Assembly (NCBI GenBank): GCA_964354285.1
Contig: CAYGYR010000004.1
Span: 10,284-74,283, forward strand
Direction: 5' to 3'
Length of the DNA stretch: 64,000 bases
Source: an uncultured Methanosarcinales archaeon
GTDB taxonomy: Archaea; Nanobdellota; Nanobdellia; Woesearchaeales; ARS49
The notes beneath the pieces are model-generated. The model saw nothing but the letters and a program-made list of their open reading frames with translations, was not told where the DNA came from and made no database searches. Position 1 is the first letter of the stretch. Every line of letters starts with the position of its first letter. Shown in pieces: positions 43,701 to 58,971 of the stretch. The translations under genes were made by a program, and so were the position numbers.

Positions 43701-44747
43701 TCACTCGCTCGCATAAAGATTTCTTGTCAATCTATGGATATCAACAATGTCAGAGAGCATTGCCTTCAGCTTTGCGACTATCTGGGCAATCTCTATTGTT
43801 TTGTTCTTAAGGAAGTATGCATCAAGAGAATCAGCTATCTCCCCCCTGGTTAGCATGACAGAGCATTCTGATTTCTTGGTATAATACAAAGTCATTGTTG
43901 TGCAGTATTCCTGGTAAATCCTCTCAATCAATTTTTTTAATCCAGGAAGGTCTGCATTCTTTTTCTTCTTCACAATACTCAGGATTCTCGCAATCCTTTT
44001 TGCCTGGTCTGCAACCTTCTCAATCCTTATCTGAAGCTCCCAGTAGCCAAGTGCCTCAAGATTAGAGATATGCAGCGCCTGCTTCACAGACGGATCTGTG
44101 AAAGCAGTCTTGAGTATCTTGAGAATCAGGAAGGTTATCCTGTTCACATCAAAATCCCGGTTGACTATAAGCTCGTGAATATCATCCCCCGTGGTCATGT
44201 TAATCGTATCAAGAATCATAGACCTCGTTATGTTATCAATGCGCCTTGTGAGCTTGTCAAGCGAAACTGTCTTTATGTCAATGAAGCTGTCTGCAACAAG
44301 CTTTGTCGATGACTCGTCCACAATCTCGAGCGCAAACAAGCCTGCAATCTCTTTTTTTATAAAATCAAGATGCTTTGGAATGTCTTTTCCCTTGAGAACA
44401 ATGATGCTGTAAGGATTAAGATACGCAGAGACAAGCTCCCTGTGGATGCAGTGCTGCTCTTTATTATCTACATTTATGACAATTTCCTTCTGCTGGACAG
44501 TAGATGCCTGGTATTTTGTTGATACGACAAGCTCATTATCCCCTTTTTCCTCTATGTAGAGCTTGTCACCTTTCTTGAGCTTGTTCCTTTCAATCCAGTC
44601 CTTTGGAATCGCAACTGTGTAAGATGCCTTTCCTGATTTTACTATTGTCCTGACGTCCATATTCTCAGGGAGAGGCGGCTTGCTTATAAAACTTTCGTTC
44701 TGGACTGTATAAAACGTGTTTTCTTCGCTCTCTAACGTGTTTTCCAT
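43701..44747 (-). CDS. AbrB/SpoVT-PhoU fusion regulator (archaeal phosphate-uptake-regulator type)
   Basis: ASYTVAIPKDWIERNKLKKGDKLYIEE AbrB-type N-domain followed by two PhoU-like helical repeats. Confidence 0.8.
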   Translation of the reverse strand: MENTLESEENTFYTVQNESFISKPPLPENMDVRTIVKSGKASYTVAIPKDWIERNKLKKGDKLYIEEKGDNELVVSTKYQASTVQQKEIVINVDNKEQHCIHRELVSAYLNPYSIIVLKGKDIPKHLDFIKKEIAGLFALEIVDESSTKLVADSFIDIKTVSLDKLTRRIDNITRSMILDTINMTTGDDIHELIVNRDFDVNRITFLILKILKTAFTDPSVKQALHISNLEALGYWELQIRIEKVADQAKRIARILSIVKKKKNADLPGLKKLIERIYQEYCTTMTLYYTKKSECSVMLTRGEIADSLDAYFLKNKTIEIAQIVAKLKAMLSDIVDIHRLTRNLYASE

Positions 44748-44780
44748 TTTTTGATAGCTTTCGCCCTTTTTGCCGCTTTC

Positions 44781-45530
44781 TTAAAAAAAAAGATCGTCTT
44801 TCACGCTCTGCAGGATTGTATAAACCACTGCTTTTTTTGCCTGCCCTTTTGAAAGGTATTCAAGTGCAGTCTCCTGTGTATTCTTGTTTGCATTCGCAAA
44901 ATAGATATCTGTGGCAAGAAGATACTTCAGGTCACGGATATTCCTTGCATTAATCGCAGTTTCCTTGATCTTGTTATACTTGAACAATGAAAGGTATTTC
45001 TCAGTAACAAGCTCGCAAATCGGGCTTGGCTTCCTGAACTCATAAAATGCATCATCCCGCACCTGCGAACGATGGTTGCTCTGCGTCATCATCTCAAAAA
45101 GCGCATCTTTTCCTGTATCTTCAGGAGCTGCGACCATACTCTCCATCGCAGTCTGCATAAGCTGGAGGGCAAAATACTGGCTGAAGCGCTTCATGCTCAT
45201 CTTTTCAATGTCATATTTCTCTTTCCTGCAGCCAGTTATCTCAACCAGAACATCAAAAAGAATTGTCTTCTTGATTGAGTCATCACTTGTGTTGGCATCA
45301 ATTTTTGCGCGCCTTATAACGTCAACATCAACAAAAGTGTCAAGCAGGCAGGATTCAACAGGGTCAAGGGCGCCATAGTAGTGGGCTTTTGGCGAATAAT
45401 TCTGCCCGATAATGTATTTTACCTTGTCCTCGTATGTCCTAAAGCGCTCCTGCTTCTCACGGGCAGCCTGCTTTTCCTCATGCGTTTTGGCTTCTTCTGA
45501 AACCAGCATGCATAAATCAACTTCTTTCAT
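44781..45530 (-). CDS. alpha-helical hypothetical protein, last gene of the Ubl/E2/JAB/E1 operon
   Basis: ATG at 45530 follows the E1 stop as TAAGATG with AAGGTGGT SD; ORF-track start 45548 also possible; no motif recognised. Confidence 0.55.
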   Translation of the reverse strand: MKEVDLCMLVSEEAKTHEEKQAAREKQERFRTYEDKVKYIIGQNYSPKAHYYGALDPVESCLLDTFVDVDVIRRAKIDANTSDDSIKKTILFDVLVEITGCRKEKYDIEKMSMKRFSQYFALQLMQTAMESMVAAPEDTGKDALFEMMTQSNHRSQVRDDAFYEFRKPSPICELVTEKYLSLFKYNKIKETAINARNIRDLKYLLATDIYFANANKNTQETALEYLSKGQAKKAVVYTILQSVKDDLFF

Positions 45531-45531
45531 C

Positions 45532-46980
45532 TTAACCACCTTTTGCATAGAGCTTTCCCATCTTCCTCAGCCATGCCGTGTAAAAGTCCTTTGGCTTTGT
45601 ATGGCAGTCACATGCCCCTCTTGAGCCAAGCATTCCAATGCGCACAGGTTCTGTGCTAATGTACTTCAAAATACCCCTGATTGGCTCCCCATATTTGTGG
45701 CTCTCAAGCACTGCGCCTGCCTCATTCACAATCATTCCGCCAACAATCTGGTTGCTTATGATGACACTCGGCTCTGCAGCATGAATGCAGCGCTGAGGCT
45801 TGAAGTTCTGCAGGGCAAGATCATCGATAGTGAGCTGGCACTGCAGGCAGCTTGTCTTTCCAGGGACATACACAGTTGCCTGCCCTGACTTGAAATCAGT
45901 GCCGCCGCTGATCAATGGAATCTGCATGGTGCGTGCATAATAATTCAGCAGTGCCCTTGTCTTGAAATTGTCAACACTATCTATGATTAAAGCAGGCCTG
46001 TTTGCTTTCAGGTATTTGCCAAAATTCGTGCCTACACGATTAAAGCTATACTCCCACTCCATGCCTGGATTGATTTTCTTAAGCTTTTCAACAAGCGCCT
46101 CTGCCTTGCGCTTTCCAACAGAGTCATAGAACAGCACCTGCCTGTTAAGGTTGGTCTCCTCAACAATATCATCATCAAAGATTGTTACCTTGCTTGCGCC
46201 GCGGATTGCGAGCCCAAGCCCAACAAAATTCCCAAGCGCGCCAGCACCAACAAGCACTACATTGCCATTGTTCTTCTGCGTTTCAGCAGGCATCTCCATA
46301 TTGTTTGCATAGCCTGTCCTTTCCTTTGAGAGCAGATTATATGAAACAATCCTGTCAAGAGGCCTGTCATTCAATGGCATGATGAGCTTTCTTGCCTCGT
46401 CAGCAACCAGGCCGCCAATCACCATGCTTGTCGCAGCGCTCTGCTCTTTTGCCCTGTATTCAGGAAAAAGATACTTTTCATCAAGCCTGCCAAGCGAAAC
46501 AGCAATCTCGCTGCTTTCAGCAGAGCTGGCTGCTGATATCACAGGCTTTCCGATTCTCTGCCCGTAATCAAGCGCGATGAGCTTTGAGCACGGGTCATTT
46601 GTGCAGTCAATAATCAGGTCAAGGCCGCCGAGCAGGCTTGCCTGGCTTGCGTAATCAAAGCTGATGCTAATTCCTTTCACATCAACTGTGGGGTTTATCT
46701 TCTTCAGCATGTCCTCAAGAGATTTTGCCTTGCTGCTGCCTTTTCTTGACCAGGAGCAAAGAAACTCCTCTCTGTTCTTAGGGTCTGCCCTGCCAACGTC
46801 GTATATCTCAATGTGGCCAAAGCCAAGGGCAGTGAGGGGAAGCGCAACAAACTGCGCAAGAGAGCCTGACCCAATTATGCCAACCCTTGCATTCTCAAGC
46901 AGGGCCTGGTTCCAGCCCTCAATCCTGTTCTGCCTGTCATACCTTGCGATTTTGCTTATTTCTGGGAAGATTGCTTGCAT
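45532..46980 (-). CDS. E1-like activating enzyme with tandem ThiF/MoeB Rossmann domains
   Basis: Domain 1: RYDRQ..VGIIGSGSLAQ but KNREE instead of NLNRQ. Domain 2: VLVGAGALGNFVG..FDDDIVEETNLNRQ..IDSVDNFKTR..CLQC..RCIHAAEP..CDCH. GGAGGTGGAGGA directly before the ATG. Confidence 0.88.
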   Translation of the reverse strand: MQAIFPEISKIARYDRQNRIEGWNQALLENARVGIIGSGSLAQFVALPLTALGFGHIEIYDVGRADPKNREEFLCSWSRKGSSKAKSLEDMLKKINPTVDVKGISISFDYASQASLLGGLDLIIDCTNDPCSKLIALDYGQRIGKPVISAASSAESSEIAVSLGRLDEKYLFPEYRAKEQSAATSMVIGGLVADEARKLIMPLNDRPLDRIVSYNLLSKERTGYANNMEMPAETQKNNGNVVLVGAGALGNFVGLGLAIRGASKVTIFDDDIVEETNLNRQVLFYDSVGKRKAEALVEKLKKINPGMEWEYSFNRVGTNFGKYLKANRPALIIDSVDNFKTRALLNYYARTMQIPLISGGTDFKSGQATVYVPGKTSCLQCQLTIDDLALQNFKPQRCIHAAEPSVIISNQIVGGMIVNEAGAVLESHKYGEPIRGILKYISTEPVRIGMLGSRGACDCHTKPKDFYTAWLRKMGKLYAKGG

Positions 46981-49895
46981 TCCTCCACCTCCGCAATTGC
47001 TTTTGCGAATTTTTCAAGAACAGCATCAGGGTCTTCAGCGCCATTGCTGCGGTACGCATTCACGAAATCCACCAGGAACTCCCTCAGCTGCTGCTTTTTT
47101 CCAGGCGCAATAAAGCAGGTCAAGTCAAGCAGAAGCTGGTTTGCAATCATTTTCTTGTCTTTTTCTGTATAAAAGTAGTCAGTGCTCCATTCCAAGTCTG
47201 ATTTGAGCTCCCCTGCTGACTTAAGCGCACTGTCAAAGGCCACAAACTTTTCAGGCCCTATTATGTCTTCAAGGACGCTTCCTGCCCATGAGCAATATTT
47301 CCTCTTGCATGGCTTCTTGTCAAAGCACCATCCTTCCATTGTGTAATCAGATACTGCTTTGGCAAATGCATTCGCAGCCATTGAATCGCGGGCAAATTCA
47401 GTCATCTGGCCATAAAACTCTGGAATCTTCTCTGGCTTGAAGCCGGCAATGAATTCAAGGAACAGCCTGTCCTTTATCTCTGCCTCAGATGGCTTGCCCT
47501 CGCTGCACCAGTCAAACCGCTTCCTGACTTCATCTTCTATCGCAACATTTTCCTCCAGCACTTTTTTTGTGCCGTCAGCCAGTGCCTTTTTAAAAGGCTT
47601 CTTGATATCATCCTCTTTCTTGCCTGCCAGCTTTATGAGGAAGCTGCCAAGCCATGCAGCATATTCCCCGCCATTGAACATGTATTCTTTTGCTGACTGG
47701 AAGAAAGAATCAAAAATCCCGCCATACACCTTTTCAAATATCTCCTTGCGCTCTTTCTCTGTCGGATCAAAGCTTGGCTTTGCAGGAACAAATTTGTGCT
47801 CATAGCTGCTGTGTTTTGCCGCAATATGCAGGTCTTCTGTAACTGCTCCTGGCATTGCTGCCCTTGGGCAATCATAAAAATCCCAGTCAACCGCGTGTTT
47901 TGCTTCTTTTTCATTGCCCTCTGCTTCTTTCTTGAAATATTTCTCAAGAACAGAATCTTTGTCTTTTTCTTTAAGGAACTCTGCCACAAACTGCCTGAAT
48001 TCAGCGCTATTCAAGAGCTCAGCAGATGCCTTCTCAAGCATCTTGTCCCTCCCCCAGCTATTATAGCTGGGCCTTTTAAGACTGGATTTCTTGAATGTTT
48101 TCAGGTTGCACCTGGCTGCACGCAGGAAACTATCGCCGCGGCCAGTATATCCGTGCTTGAAATCCTGGAATGTGTCGACAGCCCACTCGTTATACTGGTA
48201 TGGCTTCTTGTCTGCATAGCTGTCTTCTATGTACGCAGTGAATGCATCAAGAAAGTGCTCTGCAAGCCCAGAAGCGTTTTCATTTTGCTTTGTGATATCT
48301 TTCCTGACAAGCGCAACAAGAGGGTCATCGCTGCCATTCTTTTCTGGCTTTTCTTTAATTATCCTTACAGGAATCTTCACAGCACTATCTTTCTTTTTAT
48401 CTTCAGCATCTGCTTTTTCTGATGGCTTTGCTTCTTTTTTTTCAGGGGGCTCTTCATTTTCTTCAGTATCTTCTATTTTTGCGCTTTTGTATTCATTTAA
48501 TGCATTGATGGCCTTCACTTTTTCTTTTCCATCAATAAATCCCTCTACGAGCTGGCAGAGTGTCTGGCTTTTTGACAGCTCTTCAGCAAATCTGGGGACA
48601 AATTTGCGCCTGTGCTTCTCTTTGGAGTAGCTTATGACGAAATATGTTTTTGCGCTGTTTGCGAAATTAATTGATTCAACAAAATCTCTCTGGTCTATTA
48701 TGTAATTCGTGAAGACCCTGTTAAGCCACTTCCGTGAGGCTTCTTTCTGGCTATTGTCTGTGATATACTCTTTTGCAGCTTCATAGAACTGCTCTGCAAG
48801 CTTGCTGAAATCAGAAGGCTTTTCTTTCTCTTCAGCAGACTTCTTTGCTTCTTCTTCTTTTTCTTCTTCTGCTTTCTGCTCCTCTTTCTTTTCCAGCTCT
48901 TCCTGCTTTTTTCTTTCTTCCTCTGCATGCTTCTTGTCTTCCTCTACTTTCTTCTCATATGCTTTTTTCTTATGCTCCTTCAGGCTGTTTAGCTCTTTCT
49001 CAATCTTTTCATTGATTGAGTCAACTGCATCAGGCTTTTTGCTGTCTCCGCAAAACCAGCCGACAACATAATCAAAAAAGTCAAACCAGCCCCAGCGCCT
49101 TGCATCCTTCGCCTTGGAGACTGCGATTTTTGTCACAGGCGCGTATCTCCCGACCTTCAGTTTCTTATAGACTTCGTCTTCCATCAGCTTTGCATCAATG
49201 CTGACATCAGTCTCAATTTCACTTAGCATGAAGCCCGCTGCTTTTTTTGGATTCTTAAGAACCCACTTGTTGTCAGGCCCAAGCTCTTTTGCCTGCACTT
49301 CAGTATAGACATCGCCCAGTATATTAACGACAACAGAGTATGCCCATGAGCTGGAATTCTTTTTCTTCACATCAGCATCTTTCAGGTGCTCTGCGTTTAT
49401 TGCATAGCCTCCCAGGTCAAGCTTTCCGTTTTTTACAAGGTCCTCAAGCTTCACGTCTTCGTATTCTGTCTTTAAAGTATTTGGTGCAACAGAGTGCACG
49501 ACTGTCTCGAAATTATTAACATCTGTGCCTGAATGGAACACGCCAAAGCGTGCGTGAGAATGCCACCATCCAACAATCTTGTAGCCTTTTGGATCAACTG
49601 CTTCAGCAGCCCTTACAACATCCTCACCATCAATTTTACAGTACCCGCCTGAATATACCTGGTTGTCTGCAAGATATGCGTCAACAACAAGGTCTGTATC
49701 ATCATCTTTCATTGCAAGCAAAAAGCCATAGCACTCATTTGCAGAGCCAGTTATCCTCTCAACAAGCCTCGCGTATGTCTTTGCCTTTAGCAATGCGCCA
49801 GGAGTTATGTTCACTTTCGCAGGCCCTGCCTCTTTTTTAGCTGCCTCCTTTATGGAATACGGCTTTGAGTTCAATACTTCATCAAGATTAAACAT
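46956..49895 (-). CDS. giant JAB/MPN+ (JAMM) metalloprotease-domain protein
   Basis: ANECYGFLLA (Glu) and HSHARFGVFHSGTD (HxHx7Sx2D) at 49521-49562; K/E-rich linker; about 600-aa helical C-terminal region; TAATG junction with the E2-like gene, GGAGGTG SD. Confidence 0.85.
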   Translation of the reverse strand: MFNLDEVLNSKPYSIKEAAKKEAGPAKVNITPGALLKAKTYARLVERITGSANECYGFLLAMKDDDTDLVVDAYLADNQVYSGGYCKIDGEDVVRAAEAVDPKGYKIVGWWHSHARFGVFHSGTDVNNFETVVHSVAPNTLKTEYEDVKLEDLVKNGKLDLGGYAINAEHLKDADVKKKNSSSWAYSVVVNILGDVYTEVQAKELGPDNKWVLKNPKKAAGFMLSEIETDVSIDAKLMEDEVYKKLKVGRYAPVTKIAVSKAKDARRWGWFDFFDYVVGWFCGDSKKPDAVDSINEKIEKELNSLKEHKKKAYEKKVEEDKKHAEEERKKQEELEKKEEQKAEEEKEEEAKKSAEEKEKPSDFSKLAEQFYEAAKEYITDNSQKEASRKWLNRVFTNYIIDQRDFVESINFANSAKTYFVISYSKEKHRRKFVPRFAEELSKSQTLCQLVEGFIDGKEKVKAINALNEYKSAKIEDTEENEEPPEKKEAKPSEKADAEDKKKDSAVKIPVRIIKEKPEKNGSDDPLVALVRKDITKQNENASGLAEHFLDAFTAYIEDSYADKKPYQYNEWAVDTFQDFKHGYTGRGDSFLRAARCNLKTFKKSSLKRPSYNSWGRDKMLEKASAELLNSAEFRQFVAEFLKEKDKDSVLEKYFKKEAEGNEKEAKHAVDWDFYDCPRAAMPGAVTEDLHIAAKHSSYEHKFVPAKPSFDPTEKERKEIFEKVYGGIFDSFFQSAKEYMFNGGEYAAWLGSFLIKLAGKKEDDIKKPFKKALADGTKKVLEENVAIEDEVRKRFDWCSEGKPSEAEIKDRLFLEFIAGFKPEKIPEFYGQMTEFARDSMAANAFAKAVSDYTMEGWCFDKKPCKRKYCSWAGSVLEDIIGPEKFVAFDSALKSAGELKSDLEWSTDYFYTEKDKKMIANQLLLDLTCFIAPGKKQQLREFLVDFVNAYRSNGAEDPDAVLEKFAKAIAEVEECKQSSQK

Positions 49896-51367
49896 TAATC
49901 CCACCTCCGTTGTTCTTGGTTCTTGCGTATCTTGACAATATTTTTATTAAAGACAGGAATGTTGTTTTTTTGGATGCGCTCTTCTGAAATCACGTAATCC
50001 CCGAAATGATAATCATCAAGATTTGCCATTGGCGTATGATGTGACATGTCGAAATAGCCCTGCAGAACCACTCCTTTTGCATCAGAAAGAAAAGTCAGCA
50101 CGCTCTCTAATGAAGGAAGCCTTCTTGTGCGCTCATAATCATAGTTTCCTAAGCAAATACGCCCGTTAACTGCATTTAAGCCAGTAAAAGGATGCGGGTA
50201 ATTTCCAAGGACAATTGGGTCCTGCACATAAATTCCATTCCCATCATTTACCAATTGAACAGCAATCTTTCCTTTTTTGAACAGGTAATACTTGCCGTTA
50301 TGCGGGCTCTGAAGCGCATACTGCTCAGGCGTCTCGACATAGACATAATACTTGTTATCCTTTTTCAGGAATCCCACGCCTGATTTTTCATAATTATTTG
50401 ACTGAAGAATCTCCCTTAATGCCTGCCTTTCTTTTTGAGCTTCTGTAAGCGCAGCTGACTGGACGCCATTATTCCTTAATGCATCTATCTTGAACTTCTT
50501 TGCAAGCCTGCGCACATAGCTCTGGTATATTTCAGGCATCTGCTGGTGGGACCGCTGAAAGCTGAACTTTTGGGCGCCTATGAATACGGAAACGCCGTTC
50601 TGCTCCTTTGCTTCTGGAACAAGGTCATAGACACGCCCCCCGAAAATGGCAATAGAACCATGCAAAAGGCTTCCAAAAACAGAGCTGTCTGTGCTGTCCT
50701 CCTCTTCGAGCAGTGTTTTTCCAGGGGCATACTCCTGCAGGATGCTGATAATCTGGTTCTCTGTTTGTTTGCTTCTGGCAGGCATGTAATTAACATTGCC
50801 ATATTTTGCTCTTAAGAGATCCTCGATATTTCCTGCTTGCTGCGGGGCCTTTTCTGCCTGCTGCGCACAAAGCTCAGAGTCTAAATACTCTTTCTCAACT
50901 TTTCTTATCAACTTTTCAATGATTGCATTGTTTTCGCGTATGTCAATGTCAGAAACAGCGTCGCTAAGCGCGGCCTTAGGCGCTTTTTCCTGCGCGCCTG
51001 CTTTCACGCCGAGCAGATCCTTTATCTCCTTCTCCTCATATGCCCGCGTCAGCGCAGGAAGAACGTCTCTCACAATAAAAGAAAGAACTGCATTCTCTTC
51101 AAGAGCTCTTTTTGCAGCATCATTCTCCTTTACTTCCTTCTTGATTGTTGCTTCCAGAAAAGACTTCTGAAAATCCGCTATTTCCTGCTTTGCGCGTTCG
51201 AGAAAAATATTTTCATGAGTCCCAATGTCATCAAGCTTTGCCAGGCTCAGGCGCTTGCTGTAAGCCACAAGGCACCCGTCTTCCTGCCTCTCCCCAACAA
51301 CATAGATTTTCCCGTTGTGGAATATCACAGGATCCCACTCAAGCAAAAAATACGGCTTTAGCTCCAT
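49895..51367 (-). CDS. E2/UBC-like protein with large N-terminal extension
   Basis: C-terminal YPHPFTGLNAVNGRICLGN (50147-50194) resembles the HPN-x8-11-G-x-I-C-L E2 active-site signature; GGAGGG SD. Confidence 0.55.
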   Translation of the reverse strand: MELKPYFLLEWDPVIFHNGKIYVVGERQEDGCLVAYSKRLSLAKLDDIGTHENIFLERAKQEIADFQKSFLEATIKKEVKENDAAKRALEENAVLSFIVRDVLPALTRAYEEKEIKDLLGVKAGAQEKAPKAALSDAVSDIDIRENNAIIEKLIRKVEKEYLDSELCAQQAEKAPQQAGNIEDLLRAKYGNVNYMPARSKQTENQIISILQEYAPGKTLLEEEDSTDSSVFGSLLHGSIAIFGGRVYDLVPEAKEQNGVSVFIGAQKFSFQRSHQQMPEIYQSYVRRLAKKFKIDALRNNGVQSAALTEAQKERQALREILQSNNYEKSGVGFLKKDNKYYVYVETPEQYALQSPHNGKYYLFKKGKIAVQLVNDGNGIYVQDPIVLGNYPHPFTGLNAVNGRICLGNYDYERTRRLPSLESVLTFLSDAKGVVLQGYFDMSHHTPMANLDDYHFGDYVISEERIQKNNIPVFNKNIVKIRKNQEQRRWD

Positions 51368-51380
51368 ATAGTTCCCTCCA

Positions 51381-51409
51381 AAAAAAATTAAGCCCCAAAA
51401 TTAAGGGGC
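51381..51409 (-). terminator. hairpin plus T8 run between the Ubl and E2 genes (attenuator candidate)
   Basis: Minus strand GCCCC-TTAATTTT-GGGGC immediately after the Ubl stop, then TTAATTTTTTTT. Confidence 0.4.
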
Positions 51410-51808
51410 CTAAATTTTGTACTCCAGACCTCCTTCCTGGACACTTGCGACTGCTATCTCAGCAAGGCCATACTGCACCTTGTTGCCGTCCTCAAGATCC
51501 TTGTTTTGAGGCTTGATGTATTTCTCAAGAATCTCTTCTTTTATCTTCTCTGCAGTCACAGAGTCAACCCCATTAAGCATTATGACGTATTTTCCTGTCT
51601 TTTTCATCTCCTGCTTGATGGAGTCTGCAATGCTCCTCTCCTTGTCGTCCTTCAGCTGGTCTGGCCTTGTCGCATACTTTATTGCGTCGTCCAGCGACTT
51701 CTTTTCCAGCTCAGGGGGAATTCTCCTAACGATTGCTTCCTTTGACATTCCGCCCCTGACACTAATTATCTGCGGTATATCGACCGCAACTGCTTCTTCT
51801 TCTGGCAT
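51410..51808 (-). CDS. ubiquitin-like modifier candidate (Gly-Gly plus 5-residue tail)
   Basis: 132 aa from ATG at 51808 (GGAGGT SD, 7-nt spacer); ends ...ASVQEGG-LEYKI; C-terminal about 55 aa have a beta-grasp-like alternation; first gene of the operon. Confidence 0.5.
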   Translation of the reverse strand: MPEEEAVAVDIPQIISVRGGMSKEAIVRRIPPELEKKSLDDAIKYATRPDQLKDDKERSIADSIKQEMKKTGKYVIMLNGVDSVTAEKIKEEILEKYIKPQNKDLEDGNKVQYGLAEIAVASVQEGGLEYKI

Positions 51809-51904
51809 TTTGGTTACCTCCAAACATTTTTTATTTTTGAGGGCTCACAAATGTGTGTTACCTCCCAGAGCTAAAGCTATATGTCTTAGCCCTGAATTAT
51901 TTTT

Positions 51905-52068
51905 TTGAAGAGCCCGAAGATGTTGCGGCTTCAACGCACAAATTTTAAATACTTGAAAAACCCAAATATCTGCGTTGAAACCTGCCCCGGTTTCTTCAGG
52001 TTCCTCCTGGCCCCTGGCTAGGAAGGAACTTTCTTTTCGCGTAACTAAAAAGCTATTTGCTTTTTAGT
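51905..52068 (-). promoter_or_regulatory. GC-elevated multi-hairpin intergenic region upstream of the Ubl operon
   Basis: 10-bp perfect hairpin 52044-52068; 52000-52029 stem; GAAACC/GGTTTC 51977-51994 overlapping the 9-bp pair TTCAACGCA/TGCGTTGAA (51930-38 / 51971-79). Confidence 0.35.
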
Positions 52069-52082
52069 ATCAACAGAACTCG

Positions 52083-52577
52083 CTAATGCGAGTTTGTTGT
52101 ATCCCAGTCAAGGTGAATTTGATTTATTGCGCATTCAAGATCTTTAACTTGAGCATCAATGAATTCATGCAGCTTATTCTGATCTTCATACTCGCATCCC
52201 TCTTCTGACTTAAATTGAGGTATGAGGAATTGTATTGTCTCAACAGACGCTATCTCTCCGATAAAATTGAGGCAGGCGATTGCGTATCGCAAGTCCTTGA
52301 TTGCGCCTTCATAATCTTTTTTCATCCATTTCTTTCCATAGCCTTCGCTTGGGTCTGAGTAGTATTGTATTTCCTTGAATAACTGCTGGATTGTCTCTGG
52401 CCCATACTTCACGCCGCAATCAGGGTTGAAATCAGCCATAACTTCTTTGAAATCTTTCACTTCTTTCTGCAGCCTGTCAAGAAGAGTGGCCTTTTGTTCT
52501 TTGGGAGCTGGAATGCCAAGTATATCATAACCTGTTTTATCTTTTTGCTGTTGGTACTGGCCGGTTTTTCTTTGCAT
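52083..52577 (-). CDS. hypothetical helical protein
   Basis: ATG at 52577 preceded by GAGGAGGT; 164 aa. Confidence 0.5.
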   Translation of the reverse strand: MQRKTGQYQQQKDKTGYDILGIPAPKEQKATLLDRLQKEVKDFKEVMADFNPDCGVKYGPETIQQLFKEIQYYSDPSEGYGKKWMKKDYEGAIKDLRYAIACLNFIGEIASVETIQFLIPQFKSEEGCEYEDQNKLHEFIDAQVKDLECAINQIHLDWDTTNSH

Positions 52578-52641
52578 TTTTTTTACCTCCTCATAAAACA
52601 TATACAGATGTTATTGTATATATTTCTGGTGCATGTGTATC

Positions 52642-52976: not shown

Positions 52977-53978
52977 TCATCCAATTTGATGCTCGCTTCC
53001 TTCTTTTGCAAACTCTACGCTAAGGCAGCAGTGGTTTCTTCCATCCATTCTTTGATAGAGATACTCTTTTGCCCTTTTCTCGAGGTCTTTTACTATCTCA
53101 TCTGTGCTTGTTGGGTCATGGTGGGTGAAGATTATTTTCTTCACTCCTGCTTCGAGGGCAATGTCTATTCCTTTCTCGTAAGTCGAATGGCCCCAGCCTT
53201 TCTTTTTCTCATAAATCTCTGGAGTGTACTGGCCGTCATAGATTAAAATGTCAGCTCCTCTGGCCCAATCTATGAGCTTCTTGTCATTTCCTTCTGTCAC
53301 AAGCGATGCATTGCTGTCATGCTCATAATCTGTTGCAAAAACAACTGCATTGTCTTTTTCAGCTATCTTGTAGCAAAAGACTCCGTCTGGATGATTCATC
53401 CTTTTGTAGCTTACCTCAACTCCATTGCTTACCTTTACTCCTTCTGCAATGTCCTTGAAGCAGAGCTCTGCTCCCATCTGCTTTATTTCAACAGGGAAGT
53501 ATGGCTTTGTCTGCTGGTACTGGAACATTGCTTTTGCCTTGTTCATCTCTCCGTTCTTGTTAGTTATGATTGCAGTCTCTTTTGTGAGCCTGTCTGTGAG
53601 GTCTCCTTTTGTTATTCTTCTTGTTTCAACACCGTCCTGCTTTCTCTGGACTCTCTCAAGGTCTTCTTTTGTCACATCTGCATCTCCTGAGTAGACATCC
53701 AGCTTGTTTCCAGGAATGTATGCTGGAGTGAAAAAAGGAAATCCCTGGACATGATCCCAGTGCTTGTGGCTCAGGAAGAGCTTTGCATCAAGTGTCTTGC
53801 CTGCATACCTTTTCATAAGGTCTGCTCCTAGCTCTGTTATTCCTGTTCCTGCATCAAAGATATACTCGTCTCCTTCGCCAGATATCACTTCCAGGCAGGT
53901 TGTGTTTCCGCCATACTCAATAGTGCTCTTTCCTGGCTTTGGAATTGATCCTCTTGTTCCCCAAAATTTTATTTTCAT
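52977..53978 (-). CDS. MBL-fold metallo-hydrolase
   Basis: LSHKHWDHVQG (HxHxDH), downstream His/Asp ligands (FTHHD); GGTGATGA SD. Confidence 0.85.
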   Translation of the reverse strand: MKIKFWGTRGSIPKPGKSTIEYGGNTTCLEVISGEGDEYIFDAGTGITELGADLMKRYAGKTLDAKLFLSHKHWDHVQGFPFFTPAYIPGNKLDVYSGDADVTKEDLERVQRKQDGVETRRITKGDLTDRLTKETAIITNKNGEMNKAKAMFQYQQTKPYFPVEIKQMGAELCFKDIAEGVKVSNGVEVSYKRMNHPDGVFCYKIAEKDNAVVFATDYEHDSNASLVTEGNDKKLIDWARGADILIYDGQYTPEIYEKKKGWGHSTYEKGIDIALEAGVKKIIFTHHDPTSTDEIVKDLEKRAKEYLYQRMDGRNHCCLSVEFAKEGSEHQIG

Positions 53979-54200: not shown

Positions 54201-55205
54201 ATGAGAGTACTTCAAACAGCACAGCCAGAGCAAAGGGTCGAGCTAGACACCTATGACAAAAAGATACTCTTTGCCTTGTCCCAGAACTCAAGGACACCAT
54301 ACAGCCAGATAGGCAAAAAAGTAGGCCTGAGCAGGGATTCTATCAGGTATAGGATACAGCGACTGACTAAAAACAATGTAATACAAGGCTATAGAACAAT
54401 CATAGATATAACAAAACTGGGCTACATGAACTTCCATGTCTTCCTCCAGCTAAACCAGCCAGACCCAGAGGCTGAGAAAAAGCTAGTTGAGATATTCAAG
54501 GCATACCCTTTTGTCAGGGCAATCATAAAGTTCAGCGGGAAATATGACTTTGAGCTTGCAATCATCGCAAAAACAGTCAAAGATCTTGACACCATACTTT
54601 CCCAGATAATAACAGACTGCGGAGAGACCTTGCAGCACTATGAGTTATTGATTATCACAAAATCTTTTGCAGGAAAGAGCTTTCCAGACAATTTTTACAA
54701 GGCTCCTGAGGCAAAAATAATTCCGAAGCCAGCAGCTGCAGAGCCAAAGCTTGATGAAAAAGACCATCTTCTGCTTTCTGTGATATCAAACCAGGCAGAC
54801 CTTCCTTTGTATTCTGTTGCAAAAAAAGTCGGGCTTTCATCAGATGCTATAAAGTACAGGCTCAGGAAACTCAAGGAAAGCGGAGTCATTGTCAGCTACG
54901 TGCCTGTCATCAATTTTGAGAAGCTGAACTACAATGTTTATGCTATTTTACTCAGCATCGCCAACTTCACTCCCAAAAAAGAAGCTACTTTGAAAGAATT
55001 CCTCTCAACAAACAAAGACACTTTGTTCGGGGTAAAAACATTCGGCAAGTATAATGTCCTCCTTTACATCTGCACAACAAACCCAGATGACTTGATCAAG
55101 ACAACAGCAGAATTAAGAGGGCACTTTATCGGGGACGTAAGAGATTACGAGACCTTGATAAATTATGAGGAGTATAAGTATACTTATTTTCCAGAACAAG
55201 AATGA
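54201..55205 (+). CDS. fused double Lrp/AsnC-family transcription regulator
   Basis: Two complete HTH_AsnC+RAM units: DKKILFALSQNSRTPYSQIGKKVGLSRDSIRYRIQRL and DHLLLSVISNQADLPLYSVAKKVGLSSDAIKYRLRKL. Confidence 0.85.
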   Translation: MRVLQTAQPEQRVELDTYDKKILFALSQNSRTPYSQIGKKVGLSRDSIRYRIQRLTKNNVIQGYRTIIDITKLGYMNFHVFLQLNQPDPEAEKKLVEIFKAYPFVRAIIKFSGKYDFELAIIAKTVKDLDTILSQIITDCGETLQHYELLIITKSFAGKSFPDNFYKAPEAKIIPKPAAAEPKLDEKDHLLLSVISNQADLPLYSVAKKVGLSSDAIKYRLRKLKESGVIVSYVPVINFEKLNYNVYAILLSIANFTPKKEATLKEFLSTNKDTLFGVKTFGKYNVLLYICTTNPDDLIKTTAELRGHFIGDVRDYETLINYEEYKYTYFPEQE

Positions 55206-56159
55206 TTATTTAATTTTTGCCGAAATAGCCTCTGGAAAATATGCATATCTTGCAAGCGGATAAAGATAATCCCGCAGTATTAATAACCTGCTTGTGATGA
55301 TTGCATCTGGAAAGCCGCCTTTGCGCAGTATGTTTTTAATTGGCTCTTTCAATGATTGAACCCTGCACTTGTATTTGTAAAACGCTTCAAGACAGGATTT
55401 GTTTTTGTAAAGCGCATAACTATGCTCAATCAATTCAACAATCTGCTGGTATATTTTCAAAGTTTCAGGCTTGAGTCTTATGTTTTGTTTAACACCGACA
55501 AGCTCCATGCAAATACTTTTTAGCTCAAAATTCATGTGAGCTAAACTTCTAATAATAGAGTATGTGGAGGTTATTGAATAATATGAAGATATTCCTTGTT
55601 TATCGGCATACCCTCTTTTGTTCAGTATTCTGAGGCATAAATATCCGAATTTAACAGTGATTTCAAAAACCGTGCTCAGCCCATCTAATTTCTGATAATC
55701 CCCTGCCTTAATTATTTCAAAGCTTTCCTTGGCAAAGGTAATTACGCTCATATAAATTTTATTAATGAATCTGTCCAGATCTTCTTCATATTCCTCGGCA
55801 ATGTTTTTTATCACGCAATGCCTTGGGCCCTGTTCAACAGTCACAAATCCTAAGAAACTTTGCGCTAATGCCTCGTTAATCTTGGTAAGAACCGCAGGGT
55901 TTTCAAATGTTATGTACAGTTCATCATATCCTGCAATATACGGCCTAGTCAGTATCCTTGAAAGAAAATATTCTGCATCTTTAATGTGAATCTCAAGCTT
56001 GTTGTAACTTTTTTCTGTTTTTGCATTTATTATCAGTTGCCTACCATTTTCTGTGACTTCAATCTCTTCACCCTTATGCAGATTCAACTGTTTTGCCCAC
56101 TTTTTTGGTAAAGATACCATTAATGTAGACGGACCTATTTTAGCAATTTTTCTCTTCAA
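55206..56159 (-). CDS. AbrB/SpoVT-PhoU fusion regulator, second copy
   Basis: KIGPSTLMVSLPKKWAKQLNLHKGEEIEV AbrB N-domain plus PhoU-like helices; TTG start after GGGGGT. Confidence 0.8.
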   Translation of the reverse strand: MKRKIAKIGPSTLMVSLPKKWAKQLNLHKGEEIEVTENGRQLIINAKTEKSYNKLEIHIKDAEYFLSRILTRPYIAGYDELYITFENPAVLTKINEALAQSFLGFVTVEQGPRHCVIKNIAEEYEEDLDRFINKIYMSVITFAKESFEIIKAGDYQKLDGLSTVFEITVKFGYLCLRILNKRGYADKQGISSYYSITSTYSIIRSLAHMNFELKSICMELVGVKQNIRLKPETLKIYQQIVELIEHSYALYKNKSCLEAFYKYKCRVQSLKEPIKNILRKGGFPDAIITSRLLILRDYLYPLARYAYFPEAISAKIK

Positions 56160-56283
56160 TTTTACCCCCCTTTATTAAGTAATAATAACTCGTAATATAT
56201 AAATCTTTTGAAATTATAATAATTATAATCAATTAATATAATATAATGCGAAAATATATATGCTTGTAAATAATAACAGTTTT

Positions 56284-58971
56284 ATGGGGAAACTACAAAC
56301 ATTCTTTTTTTTGTGTCTATTGATTTTTATATCTGCTCCCGCAGTATCAGCAGCCGGAGCCATCGTTTATAAAAATGCAGACTGGGTAAATGATACAAAT
56401 ATCGTCCTAACTGATGATAATTGGGACATAGTTCCGGCAGAGGATTTCCATGCTTATCAAGCGCATGAAGAGACACAACTTTTGTATTGTGATGATGCTG
56501 CAGAAGAGTGCAGGCCTTTGTGGAGGCTTGCGCTGCAGGATTTAGGAATAACTAATCTTGTTCTCGGCTGGTATGATAGCTTGAGCTCGAGAGGAGATTG
56601 CGAAAGGGGTGTTTGCGCAAGATACCTGACAGATGAAGAGAAAAGCATTCTAGAAGCAGATGGCTTCCAAAAATACTGTGATACTTCCTGGTCGTATCCC
56701 TGCAGCGGAGTTGGGACATACACTGATTGTGTTGCTTGTGTTACAAATCATGTAACAGACTGTCAGTATGACTTTTATAGGTGGGCAGTCAGGTGCCAAG
56801 GCACATGCAAGTATGGTGGTTATGATGTTGGGGCATGCGAACTGATTGATAATTTCTGCTTTGACCATAGAACAGAAGTTACACTTGATGATACCTGCAG
56901 ATATTATAAAGATCACTTGAGCGAGGAAGATGTTGCTAGAGTATATAACCACACAAGCTGCTGGATTGAAGGCTCATCATTAAGGTGGTCAGGAAATGAT
57001 ATTTCAAAATATTATAAAATAGTGGGGGCACCATCCATACATGAAGGCTATATATCTTGCTTGATCAATTATTCTGACTGGCAGGAACAAGCCAGTGATG
57101 ACCAGAACCATGCTGCAGACCAGATAGGCCCTGGGAGCAAACTTTATTTTGACTTTACAGGCCAGATTAACGCAGAGCCTGATTGCTATGAGAATTCTGA
57201 CTGCGGTGAAACATACTGGACAGGAGATTCAGGATGCTGTAATGATGAAGGATGGAACATCTGCAGAGCATATCACGGCTACGAATGCAGAAACCCAGGA
57301 GAGGAGAATGCATACTGCTTTGAATGGGATGGGTACAAACAGGTTGAAGAATGTTTTAATCAATGCCAAAACAACACGTGCCAAGCAGACATCGAGCCTG
57401 AAGAGCCCTCTAATGAAACAAACATAACAGACCCCCCTGTTGTGCCTGAGGAACCTGATGAGCCAGACTGTGAAAACTGTGTTAATGTTTCTGAAATTGC
57501 AGATATAGGAATTGAGGCGATTACTTCAATCAAGCAGGAACTATTGCTGGCTGCACAAGTGACTGATGCAAAGGTTGGGGGCACTGCATTTGAGTTTAGT
57601 GAGTGCTTCTATAATCTATTTATTGACTCAAGCAATCCCGCAAGCCTTGGGTTTAAAACTGTTGTTGCAAAAGATATTTTTCAGGAATTCGTTTTTGATG
57701 CATTAAAAGGCGTCTTTTACGAAAACGCTTATGAGGCTGCTGTAAATGACGTGTATATACCTGAACTTGAGAAGATTGCAAAAGAAATTCAGGGGATGAA
57801 TTTTACACAGGTAAATAACACAGAATTTACCCAAGATGTTAAAACTTATTTTGAATATCTTAAAACTGTGATAAAGTCAAATAGAGAGAGCACAGAAGAG
57901 ATTGTTGCTTCAGCAAACCAATTAAAATTCAAGATTAAATTAACATTACTGGGCAGTAAAATTATAAGAATGTTAGTAGTAGGATCTGTTGACGCAGCAC
58001 CGAGTGTTATTCAATCTTTGAAATTTGCAAATGAAGCAGGCTCAGACATTGAAAGCTGCTTCTGGGAAAACTACTACACTCAAGTAAATGTCAATTATGT
58101 TTTAAGCATGCAAATGAAGAATAATATGGAAACAGCAATATCTGCAGCACGAATAATTAAAGAAACAATGGATTACCTTAACTATAATACAGAGACTCCT
58201 TCTATCACAGTAGCAGGTGGTGCATTTGGAGGATCACAATATGCCATTAGGAACGAGTTCAGCGACCTGTTGTCTCTTTCAGTTTATTCAGATATTAATG
58301 ATATAACCGTACAGCCATACTGTGGGGCTGTTGCGTCTGGACTGCCTTTGCTAAATTTTTCATCAAAATTAGAAAATGGAACTACCATGCAGATTAATGA
58401 AAGCCAAATATACTCTGTAGAGTATGAACCTCTGGTTAAAGAAGCGCTTGGCAAAATAAACCTGCAGTCATACTGCCCGGTAGACAGGTGTTATGGATCT
58501 GCAGCGGATATAAGCGTGAAGATTGTCTCAAAAGGAGATGTATACGTAGCATACGGGGATGGCAGGCCAATGGCTGCAAAAAGAATGCCGTTCACGCAGT
58601 ATTATACAACTTATCTATGCAAAAAAGCAAGTGTCACACCCAGTTCAGGAGGCGGCGGTGGCGGAGGCGGGGGCAGCCCTAACTCAGTAATGACTAAGTC
58701 TCAGCCCCCAACAAGCACGGCTCCAGCAGTAACAGGATTGTTTGGCGGTTTCACTGGCAGTGATAAAACTGATGCAAAAACAAATACGCCAAAAGTTTCT
58801 CAGGATAAAAAAGAAGTAAAGACAGAGCCTAAGAAAGAGGAACAGAAGCAAACCGCACCGAAGAAAGAAGTTGTTAAGCAAACTAATCCTGTCATAGAAA
58901 CAGTTAAATCAATCAGTAATTTCTTTTTTCAACCAGTTATTCAGTTGCTAAAATGGTTTAGAATTATTTAA
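56284..58971 (+). CDS. large secreted Cys-rich surface protein with Gly-run and K/T/P-rich stalk
   Basis: Signal peptide FFFLCLLIFISAPAVSA; about 40 Cys in the N-half; SSGGGGGGGGSP, PPTSTAP, KKE repeats; hydrophobic C-terminus. Confidence 0.65.
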   Translation: MGKLQTFFFLCLLIFISAPAVSAAGAIVYKNADWVNDTNIVLTDDNWDIVPAEDFHAYQAHEETQLLYCDDAAEECRPLWRLALQDLGITNLVLGWYDSLSSRGDCERGVCARYLTDEEKSILEADGFQKYCDTSWSYPCSGVGTYTDCVACVTNHVTDCQYDFYRWAVRCQGTCKYGGYDVGACELIDNFCFDHRTEVTLDDTCRYYKDHLSEEDVARVYNHTSCWIEGSSLRWSGNDISKYYKIVGAPSIHEGYISCLINYSDWQEQASDDQNHAADQIGPGSKLYFDFTGQINAEPDCYENSDCGETYWTGDSGCCNDEGWNICRAYHGYECRNPGEENAYCFEWDGYKQVEECFNQCQNNTCQADIEPEEPSNETNITDPPVVPEEPDEPDCENCVNVSEIADIGIEAITSIKQELLLAAQVTDAKVGGTAFEFSECFYNLFIDSSNPASLGFKTVVAKDIFQEFVFDALKGVFYENAYEAAVNDVYIPELEKIAKEIQGMNFTQVNNTEFTQDVKTYFEYLKTVIKSNRESTEEIVASANQLKFKIKLTLLGSKIIRMLVVGSVDAAPSVIQSLKFANEAGSDIESCFWENYYTQVNVNYVLSMQMKNNMETAISAARIIKETMDYLNYNTETPSITVAGGAFGGSQYAIRNEFSDLLSLSVYSDINDITVQPYCGAVASGLPLLNFSSKLENGTTMQINESQIYSVEYEPLVKEALGKINLQSYCPVDRCYGSAADISVKIVSKGDVYVAYGDGRPMAAKRMPFTQYYTTYLCKKASVTPSSGGGGGGGGGSPNSVMTKSQPPTSTAPAVTGLFGGFTGSDKTDAKTNTPKVSQDKKEVKTEPKKEEQKQTAPKKEVVKQTNPVIETVKSISNFFFQPVIQLLKWFRII

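Follow-up and report, generated by a model that had tools for sequence, protein, structure and literature searches.

Does the 490-aa protein encoded in the midst of an archaeal ubiquitin-like protein (Ubl) cassette act as its ubiquitin-conjugating (E2) enzyme, and is it related to the E2 enzymes already known? The question is raised by a 64,000-nucleotide (nt) window, the whole stretch of DNA analyzed here (assembly GCA_964354285.1, contig CAYGYR010000004.1, positions 10,284 to 74,283), in which a motif resembling an E2 active site had been noted near the C-terminus of that protein. We conclude that the protein is probably a thioester-carrying conjugating enzyme, functionally an E2 and perhaps a combined E2/E3, of a Ubl-tagging cassette in a Woesearchaeota-type archaeon of the DPANN group. 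Its C-terminal domain may be either an extremely divergent E2 or an independent invention.

The gene and its motif lie at the following positions of the window.

49895-51367, minus strand: the 490-aa protein that is the subject of this report (open reading frame (ORF) listing), belonging to an unclassified family of Woesearchaeota proteins that share a single conserved cysteine

50147-50194, minus strand: the motif HPFTGLNAVNGRICLG, the H392-G407 core (translation of the bases)

Translation of the bases confirms the ORF, the motif and the codon of Cys405 (50153-50155, minus strand). The interval 50147-50194, which the original prediction gave for its quoted string, holds the H392-G407 core, whereas the full string, Y390-E412, spans 50132-50200. 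A GGAGG ribosome-binding site lies 8 nt 5' of the ATG. By itself the motif is near chance: the window's stop-free stretches total 44,349 residues and contain the relaxed pattern HP-x(6,14)-[LIV]-C-[LIVM] twice. It carries weight because it is conserved across a protein family.

That family was uncovered by an exhaustive HMMER search using a profile of close relatives, which returned at least 371 cluster representatives at E<=1e-3 and 214 at E<=1e-10. A word-indexed search with the single protein as query found only 8 close relatives, and the same search with a 92-sequence profile added one further partial sequence only. All seven full-length close homologs retain HPF...ICLG with an invariant Cys405. 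Of 148 aligned, diverse members (17-30% identity) 147 have Cys405, whose column shares the top rank for conservation, and no other cysteine is conserved; Pro393 follows at 97%, and His392, Phe394 and Gly407 stand at 84% each. The cysteine whose conservation among homologs the original prediction had wanted checked is thus very nearly invariant. It is kept in 12 of the 12 aligned cassette proteins, including three tandem paralogs at one locus (L011) and six at another (L014), where the paralogs retain the proline and the cysteine and vary the histidine to N, D or S. The spacing from His-Pro to Cys is 10-16 residues in the family versus about 8 in canonical E2s, and the proteins measure 400-600 aa. 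All named members are hypothetical proteins, seven of them belonging to Candidatus Woesearchaeota and one to 'Euryarchaeota archaeon SM23-78', so that the likeliest source of the window is a Woesearchaeota-type DPANN archaeon. A scan of GTDB genomes and a scan of IMG/VR with the alignment of close homologs each returned no relative, and among phage genomes tblastn with the C-terminal domain matched nothing but tail-sheath genes, at chance level (E 0.3-0.4). A full-text literature search found no description of the family or of any DPANN Ubl system.

The genomic setting is the other principal line of evidence. The 490-aa gene shares the minus strand with genes for a Ubl candidate, a JAB peptidase, an E1 and an accessory protein, and their overlapping or abutting frames are translationally coupled. 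Together with the gene directly upstream, the neighbors are these.

51410-51823, minus strand: Ubl-precursor candidate, 137 aa from a TTG (ORF finder; Gly-Gly plus tail)

46956-49904, minus strand: JAB/MPN metallopeptidase, 982 aa (Pfam Prok-JAB 3.4e-8, JAB 6.2e-5)

45532-46980, minus strand: tandem-ThiF E1, 482 aa (Pfam ThiF 2.6e-58, two stretches)

44781-45548, minus strand: accessory protein, 255 aa (synteny: it follows the E1 in most cassettes, at 248-299 aa; no family match)

52083-52601, minus strand: 172-aa protein directly upstream of the Ubl gene, kept only in close relatives

The true start of the Ubl candidate is probably the ATG at 51806-51808, which yields 132 aa; its homologs begin at the equivalent of Met6 (MPEEE or MAEEE). 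The protein ends in VQEGG (Gly-Gly codons 51428-51433) followed by a five-residue tail, LEYKI. A Gly-Gly of this kind, followed by a variable tail, characterizes Ubl precursors that JAB peptidases trim, and cleavage at this site is predicted here. A beta-grasp fold for the tag is weakly suggested: the candidate has a sub-threshold match to the ThiS-like NCBIfam model PRK06437 (E 1.2e-3), and an hhalign comparison with Ub, ThiS, MoaD and SAMP1 was not significant.

The likely start of the JAB peptidase is the ATG at 49893-49895, which overlaps the preceding stop as TAATG. Its catalytic motif comprises Glu57 (49734-49736) and HSHARFGVFHSGTD (residues 115-128, 49521-49562), which follows the pattern HSHx7SxxD, and the protein weakly matches the PADLOC BilC model (E 0.0029) and desampylase. 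Beyond the catalytic domain it carries a helical C-terminal extension of about 840 aa (residues ~140-982; 46956-49490, minus strand) with a Lys/Glu-rich stretch. Four copies of a helical unit, (F/Y)xx(A/S)xxxY and then Trp, can be discerned in the extension at about residues 373, 551, 734 and 847, although a BLASTP self-comparison did not detect them. The extension is lineage-specific, since the JAB proteins of distant cassettes measure only 273-313 aa.

The E1, whose start overlaps the JAB gene by 25 nt, contains GAGALGN (residues 245-251), TNLNRQ (276-281), the Zn-type pairs C378xxC381 and C457xC459, and Cys398 (45787-45789) in the crossover loop. GAGxLGN, TNLNRQ, Lys292, Asp337, CxxC 378-381, CxC 457-459 and Cys398 are invariant in eight aligned E1s. 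Intact ATP-binding and arginine-finger motifs occur in the second domain only, and the protein therefore has an inactive-plus-active adenylation architecture. Its sequence matches in the PDB are MccB, UBA3, UBA1, SAE2 and Uba4, and its closest NCBIfam models are ThiF and MoeB; of 33 PADLOC matches, the 25 listed are all Cap2-type E1-E2 models. Apart from the Zn cysteines of the E1, the only conserved cysteines of the cassette are Cys398 of the E1 and Cys405 of the 490-aa protein.

Two neighbors were considered and rejected. The 255-aa accessory protein is not the real E2, as it is unrelated to the 490-aa family, loses its Cys178 in distant homologs and has no E2 match. The 172-aa protein, absent from distant cassettes, is of uncertain membership and was not retained as a component.

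We examined 12 cassettes, four of them on cut-off contigs. A small protein ending in Gly-Gly plus a variable tail precedes the family gene in all 12, and a JAB peptidase, a tandem-ThiF E1 or both accompany it in 11. The close loci (L001-L007, 49-82% identity) keep the same neighbors to the ends of their contigs, although three are cut off and reveal no more than the JAB-position gene or the Ubl. At 20-29% identity, the distant cassettes (L008/L009, L010, L011, L012 and L014) contain, in this order, the small protein, the family member, the JAB protein and a ThiF protein of 466-520 aa, and in the contig-limited L013 the next gene carries the JAB motif. All 10 distinct Ubl-position sequences retrieved have the invariant Gly-Gly followed by 4-13 variable residues; the residues before it follow (Q/D/T/K)(E/Q/-), giving mostly QEGG, DEGG, SQGG or QQGG. 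Tandem arrays of the family comprise three members in L011 (2024-11668) and six in L014 (2713-16053). In these same two loci the gene directly before the Ubl encodes an AAA+ protein of 502-504 aa that matches the Mpa/ARC model TIGR03689 over its whole length (E 1e-120 and 1e-114, below the curated cut-off), and in L012 a ClpX-like ATPase (E 1e-97) follows the accessory gene. The window's own cassette has no adjacent unfoldase. The Mpa/ARC-like linkage suggests that tagged proteins are handed to an unfoldase.

We then turn to the architecture of the 490-aa protein. AlphaFold2 reached a predicted local distance difference test (pLDDT) value of 40.6 with 7 sequences, and of 86.3 with the 148-sequence alignment, at a predicted template-modeling score (pTM) of 0.75. 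The model is divided as follows.

51014-51361, minus strand: repeat unit 1, residues 3-118 (DSSP of the model, hhalign self-comparison, conservation)

50402-50689, minus strand: repeat unit 2, residues 227-322 (homologous to unit 1; pLDDT >90)

49958-50401, minus strand: C-terminal cysteine domain, residues 323-470 (model; best-conserved part of the family)

In the model, unit 1 consists of a four-stranded beta module (14-47) and a long helical hairpin (48-118), and unit 2 of a four-stranded beta module (239-272) and a helical hairpin (277-322); long coiled-coil segments are also present, including a coiled-coil linker in the N-terminal half. Sub-profiles of residues 3-64 and 227-293 align with an hhalign probability of 96.6% and an E of 6.7e-10. 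On this profile comparison the N-terminal duplication is real and the two units are homologous, in agreement with the two similar units described in the original prediction, which could assign the region to no family; we likewise obtained no known-family match for it in Pfam or by Foldseek against the PDB. The best-conserved feature outside the cysteine domain is a motif in the first helical hairpin, FIxxxV(F/L)PxL, with Pro104 (51056-51058) present in 93% of the 148 members. The E1 or the Ubl may dock at this motif.

The C-terminal domain is modeled with pLDDT mostly above 90 across residues 323-470. Helix 301-322 leads into about seven short strands (325-387), then His392-Pro393-Phe394 and Cys405 in a loop, followed by a short helix (411-415), a long one (419-436) and three more at 452-458, 462-467 and 475-489. 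In locus L014 the domain is found alone, as a 222-aa paralog. The modeled order of elements is compatible with a UBC core plus two or three extra strands, a compatibility that falls short of demonstration; the meander has about seven strands here versus four in UBC. A Foldseek search of BFVD matched an unnamed viral protein of 420 aa, A0A1B0WLX5 (E 0.011, probability 0.99, 149 columns of the model), which may be a viral relative of one of the domains.

A series of results weighs against taking the 490-aa protein for an E2, and above all against placing it in the UBC family. The query has no match in Pfam at E<=1, UQ_con and the Prok-E2 models included, and none of 92 family members matches the Pfam E2 models (UQ_con, Prok-E2_A-E) at E<=0.01. 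The PADLOC models for E2, BilB and Cap2 do not match the protein, PHROGs gave no match, NCBIfam yielded only a chance-level match to dihydroorotate oxidase (E 0.011), and PDB sequences, searched by phmmer and by profile, gave chance matches only. We compared the C-terminal profile of the family by hhalign with ten canonical eukaryotic E2s, whose sequences were entered by hand; the best local alignment sets HPF...IC...helix onto HPN...IC...alpha2 over 38-40 columns around the cysteine, at P 0.07-0.095. Controls in the same test gave 3.2e-4 for UFC1, 1.4e-12 for UBE2V2 and 0.62 for the reversed family profile. By this measure the similarity to canonical E2s is not significant, being marginally over the reversed control and far below UFC1. 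Foldseek of the whole-protein model against the PDB returned a best E of 0.45, with no E2, UEV or RWD protein among the 50 matches listed. The UBC/RWD-like fold that the original prediction had proposed for the C-terminal part, and with it the relation to UQ_con and Prok-E2, is accordingly not upheld, and we do not file the protein as a UBC-family member, as homology was sought in three ways (sequence, profile and structure) and found in none. In addition, the position of the Asn of HPN is Phe in 84% of the family; 16% of aligned members, several tandem paralogs included, carry N, D, S or G where the others have His392; the E1 has no helical CYS-domain insertion, with about 22 residues between C381 and the PSV motif; and the full-length cassette L015 has the small protein, the family member and the ThiF E1 without a recognizable JAB. 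Archaeal SAMPylation in Haloferax runs on an E1 alone, so that a dedicated E2 is not strictly needed. What survives of the E2-like interpretation is its functional part, which is strengthened because the cysteine is conserved and because the gene lies among Ubl, JAB and E1 genes.

The rival explanations differ in what they make of the fold and of the cysteine. The protein could genuinely belong to the UBC/E2 superfamily and have diverged from it to an extreme degree, a claim about ancestry that overlaps with the E2-like reading in function; its core of alpha1, four-stranded meander, HPN loop, Cys and alpha2-alpha4 would then have gained two or three inserted strands and the duplicated N-terminal extension. 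The secondary-structure order of the model fits UBC, the genomic context is of E2 type, and the top local hhalign alignment pairs HPF-x-IC-x-helix with HPN-x-IC-x-alpha2, while the next sets YYVYVETPEQYALQSP on the beta2 segment FPxxYPxxPP, in the same order in both proteins. Set against these points are the weak P values just given beside those of UFC1 and the reversed control, the failure of the Pfam and PADLOC E2 models to match any of the 92 members, the lack of an E2 among the 50 listed Foldseek PDB matches despite a domain pLDDT above 90, and the missing Asn of HPN, and we regard this ancestry as possible and rather doubtful. With similar reserve we entertain the idea that the C-terminal domain does not have the UBC fold and that this Ubl carrier evolved independently. 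It would in that case represent a new E2/E3-like structural class confined to DPANN (Woesearchaeota), whose paralog arrays with their different N-terminal modules would serve as target selectors. Tagged proteins would be passed to unfoldases of the Mpa/ARC-like or ClpX-like kind, and the system would amount to a third tag-and-unfold pathway, an archaeal one, next to ubiquitin-proteasome and Pup-Mpa.

Other readings take the cysteine out of conjugation altogether. A conserved His...Cys pair would suit a cysteine peptidase, acting through a His392/Cys405 dyad as a second deconjugase or Ubl-processing enzyme, in a system where the E1 alone conjugates as in SAMPylation; Ubl systems often encode more than one protease, and E1-only conjugation is known in archaea. 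However, about 16% of members, among them paralogs with the Cys intact, have N, D, S or G in place of His392, a variation that would be unusual in a catalytic dyad, and Foldseek and hidden Markov model searches show no similarity to papain-like, clan CE, clan CD or other cysteine-peptidase folds. A JAB protein is moreover already recognized in every cassette whose contig extends past the family gene, except L015, and three to six paralogs with variable N-termini better match substrate-selecting ligases, which makes a peptidase improbable. We consider it similarly improbable that the protein is a non-catalytic scaffold, an adaptor or the principal target, its cysteine being structural, redox-active or metal-binding. 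Long coiled-coil and helical-hairpin segments, duplicated modules and the lack of a fold that Foldseek recognizes as an enzyme would agree with such a role, yet a solitary Cys in an exposed loop, near-invariant along with Pro393 and Gly407, is unable to bind a metal unaided, and its retention in every paralog amid surrounding variation is the pattern of a nucleophile. Finally, the cassette might be a sulfur-carrier pathway of the ThiS/MoaD/CysO/QbsE type, in which the carrier would be trimmed by the JAB protein, adenylated by the ThiF-like protein and thiocarboxylated, with Cys405 as a persulfide carrier. CysO-Mec and QbsE-QbsD do share a GG-tailed carrier, JAB trimming and MoeB/ThiF activation (Iyer et al., 2006, PMC1779556), and ThiF and MoeB are the E1's nearest NCBIfam models. 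But the E1 has no rhodanese domain, no ThiG, MoaE, CysM or other sulfur-acceptor enzyme occurs in any cassette (the window and the related loci), a single-chain inactive-plus-active E1 is a protein-conjugating architecture (PMC10557695), and the linkage to Mpa/ARC-like and ClpX-like unfoldases together with the tandem paralogs indicates protein tagging; we judge a sulfur carrier very improbable.

If the 490-aa protein is the conjugating enzyme of the cassette, as we favor, we infer the following route. The JAB peptidase would remove the five-residue tail of the 132-137-aa Ubl precursor and so expose its Gly-Gly. The single-chain E1 would adenylate the terminal Gly and then load the Ubl onto Cys398 of its crossover loop, from which it would pass to Cys405, in the loop 13 residues past His-Pro-Phe and just before the short and long helices, and from there to lysines of target proteins. 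Targets would be chosen by the variable N-terminal half, with its two beta-module/helical-hairpin units and coiled-coil linker, and by the tandem paralogs. The JAB peptidase would possibly reverse the modification too, and in some lineages the adjacent Mpa-like or ClpX-like unfoldase would act on the tagged proteins.

The surroundings of the cassette offer several further observations. Two genes upstream of the Ubl gene lies a metallo-beta-lactamase (MBL)-fold gene (Lactamase_B_2, 1.4e-10; 52977-53978, minus strand), which is syntenic in the close relatives L001, L002 and L004 and absent from distant cassettes. The NCBIfam model '6A-MBL system cap2_3' weakly matches the E1, at 70 bits versus a cut-off of 320, and class 6a E2-E1-JAB operons are nearly always found beside an MBL gene (Iyer et al., 2006, PMC1779556). 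Two AbrB/MazE-PhoU-type regulators (43701-44747, minus strand; 55206-56159, minus strand) and a tandem-AsnC/Lrp regulator (54201-55205, plus strand) flank the cassette, an AbrB-PhoU gene doing so also in L001, L002, L004 and L008; these genes could be regulators of the system. The G+C content over the cassette (44001-52000) is 0.43-0.47, versus 0.34-0.42 in most of the window, with consistently negative GC and AT skew, and the raised G+C could reflect protein composition or a distinct origin. Farther out, a gene on the plus strand (56260-58971) encodes a Cys-rich protein of 903 aa with a hydrophobic, signal-peptide-like N-terminal segment, a run of nine glycines and a Lys/Thr/Pro-rich tail, features that make a surface protein probable. 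Scans of the whole 64 kb window for tRNA, tmRNA and Rfam families came back empty.

Ubl conjugation outside the eukaryotes is an active field, embracing Bil, Bub, CBASS Cap2/Cap3, SAMP and the operons of Caldiarchaeum and the Asgard archaea. To our knowledge, the carrier in every described system that has both an E1 and a carrier is a recognizable UBC-fold protein. In the present case, a family undescribed in the libraries and literature searched occupies the E2 position of a complete Ubl/JAB/E1 cassette that is widespread in Woesearchaeota. Were the family a very divergent E2, the range of the UBC fold would be extended and the small-genome, episymbiont DPANN archaea would gain a protein-tagging system of their own; were it not UBC-like, the E2 step would have been invented convergently. 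Given the paralog arrays and the linked unfoldases of proteasome and Clp type, a role in targeting proteins for degradation can be tested directly by reconstitution.

How, then, does the cassette compare with known systems? It recalls the Pup-proteasome system with its Mpa/ARC ATPase (TIGR03689) in that an AAA+ gene directly precedes the Ubl gene in L011 and L014, and departs from it in having no Pup, PafA or Dop and in an ATPase that scores below the curated cut-off. With the SAMP/UbaA/HvJAMM1 system of Haloferax and the operon of Caldiarchaeum subterraneum it shares an archaeal, GG-ended modifier, a ThiF-type E1 and trimming or reversal by a JAMM peptidase (PMC2948915, PMC5654768, PMC6043591). 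The SAMP system, however, has no E2-position protein, and the Ub-E1-E2-RING-Rpn11 operon of Caldiarchaeum subterraneum has a recognizable UBC E2 and a RING E3, whereas here an unclassified family supplies the sole candidate carrier and the E1 joins tandem domains in one chain.

As in the UBC, Prok-E2 and Cap2 E2s, a catalytic-type Cys comes about 10-13 residues past His-Pro where a beta-meander ends, a short and a long helix come next, and the gene is linked to E1, Ubl and JAB genes. The 490-aa protein differs from them in reading HPF instead of HPN, in a longer loop from motif to Cys, in its roughly seven strands versus four, in a duplicated N-terminal region of 320 aa, and in showing no significant sequence, profile or Foldseek similarity. 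A tblastn search of plasmids with the E1, meant to gather neighboring prokaryotic E2s for a better profile, gave only MoeB/ThiF-type genes.

The closest known system is the bacterial BilABCD (Bil, Type I/II; operon classes 6D/6C of Iyer et al., 2006). The present cassette differs from it in its archaeal (Woesearchaeota) host; in an E2-position protein of 400-600 aa that has no BilB or E2 model match and is not UBC by Foldseek; in an E1 whose Cys398 lies on a short crossover loop like that of ThiF and MoeB, in place of a mobile helical CYS domain; in the failure of the PADLOC Bil models, BilA and BilB included, except for the weak BilC match; and in the extra conserved accessory protein of about 255 aa and, in some cassettes, three to six paralogs and an unfoldase. 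The two systems nevertheless share the order Ubl, E2-position protein, JAB peptidase, E1. In both, a single-chain E1 combines an inactive with an active adenylation domain and a Zn site, of the CxxC...CxC type here, as described for BilD (PMC10557695), and in both the Ubl has a conserved Gly and a short tail, which BilC trims from BilA (PMC10557695) and whose removal is predicted here. Neither encodes an E3: the E2 of Bil is thought to recognize its targets directly (PMC11601596, section 5), and the same mode of direct recognition fits the E2-position protein here, which is large, varies at its N-terminus, occurs as tandem paralogs and presumably picks the targets.

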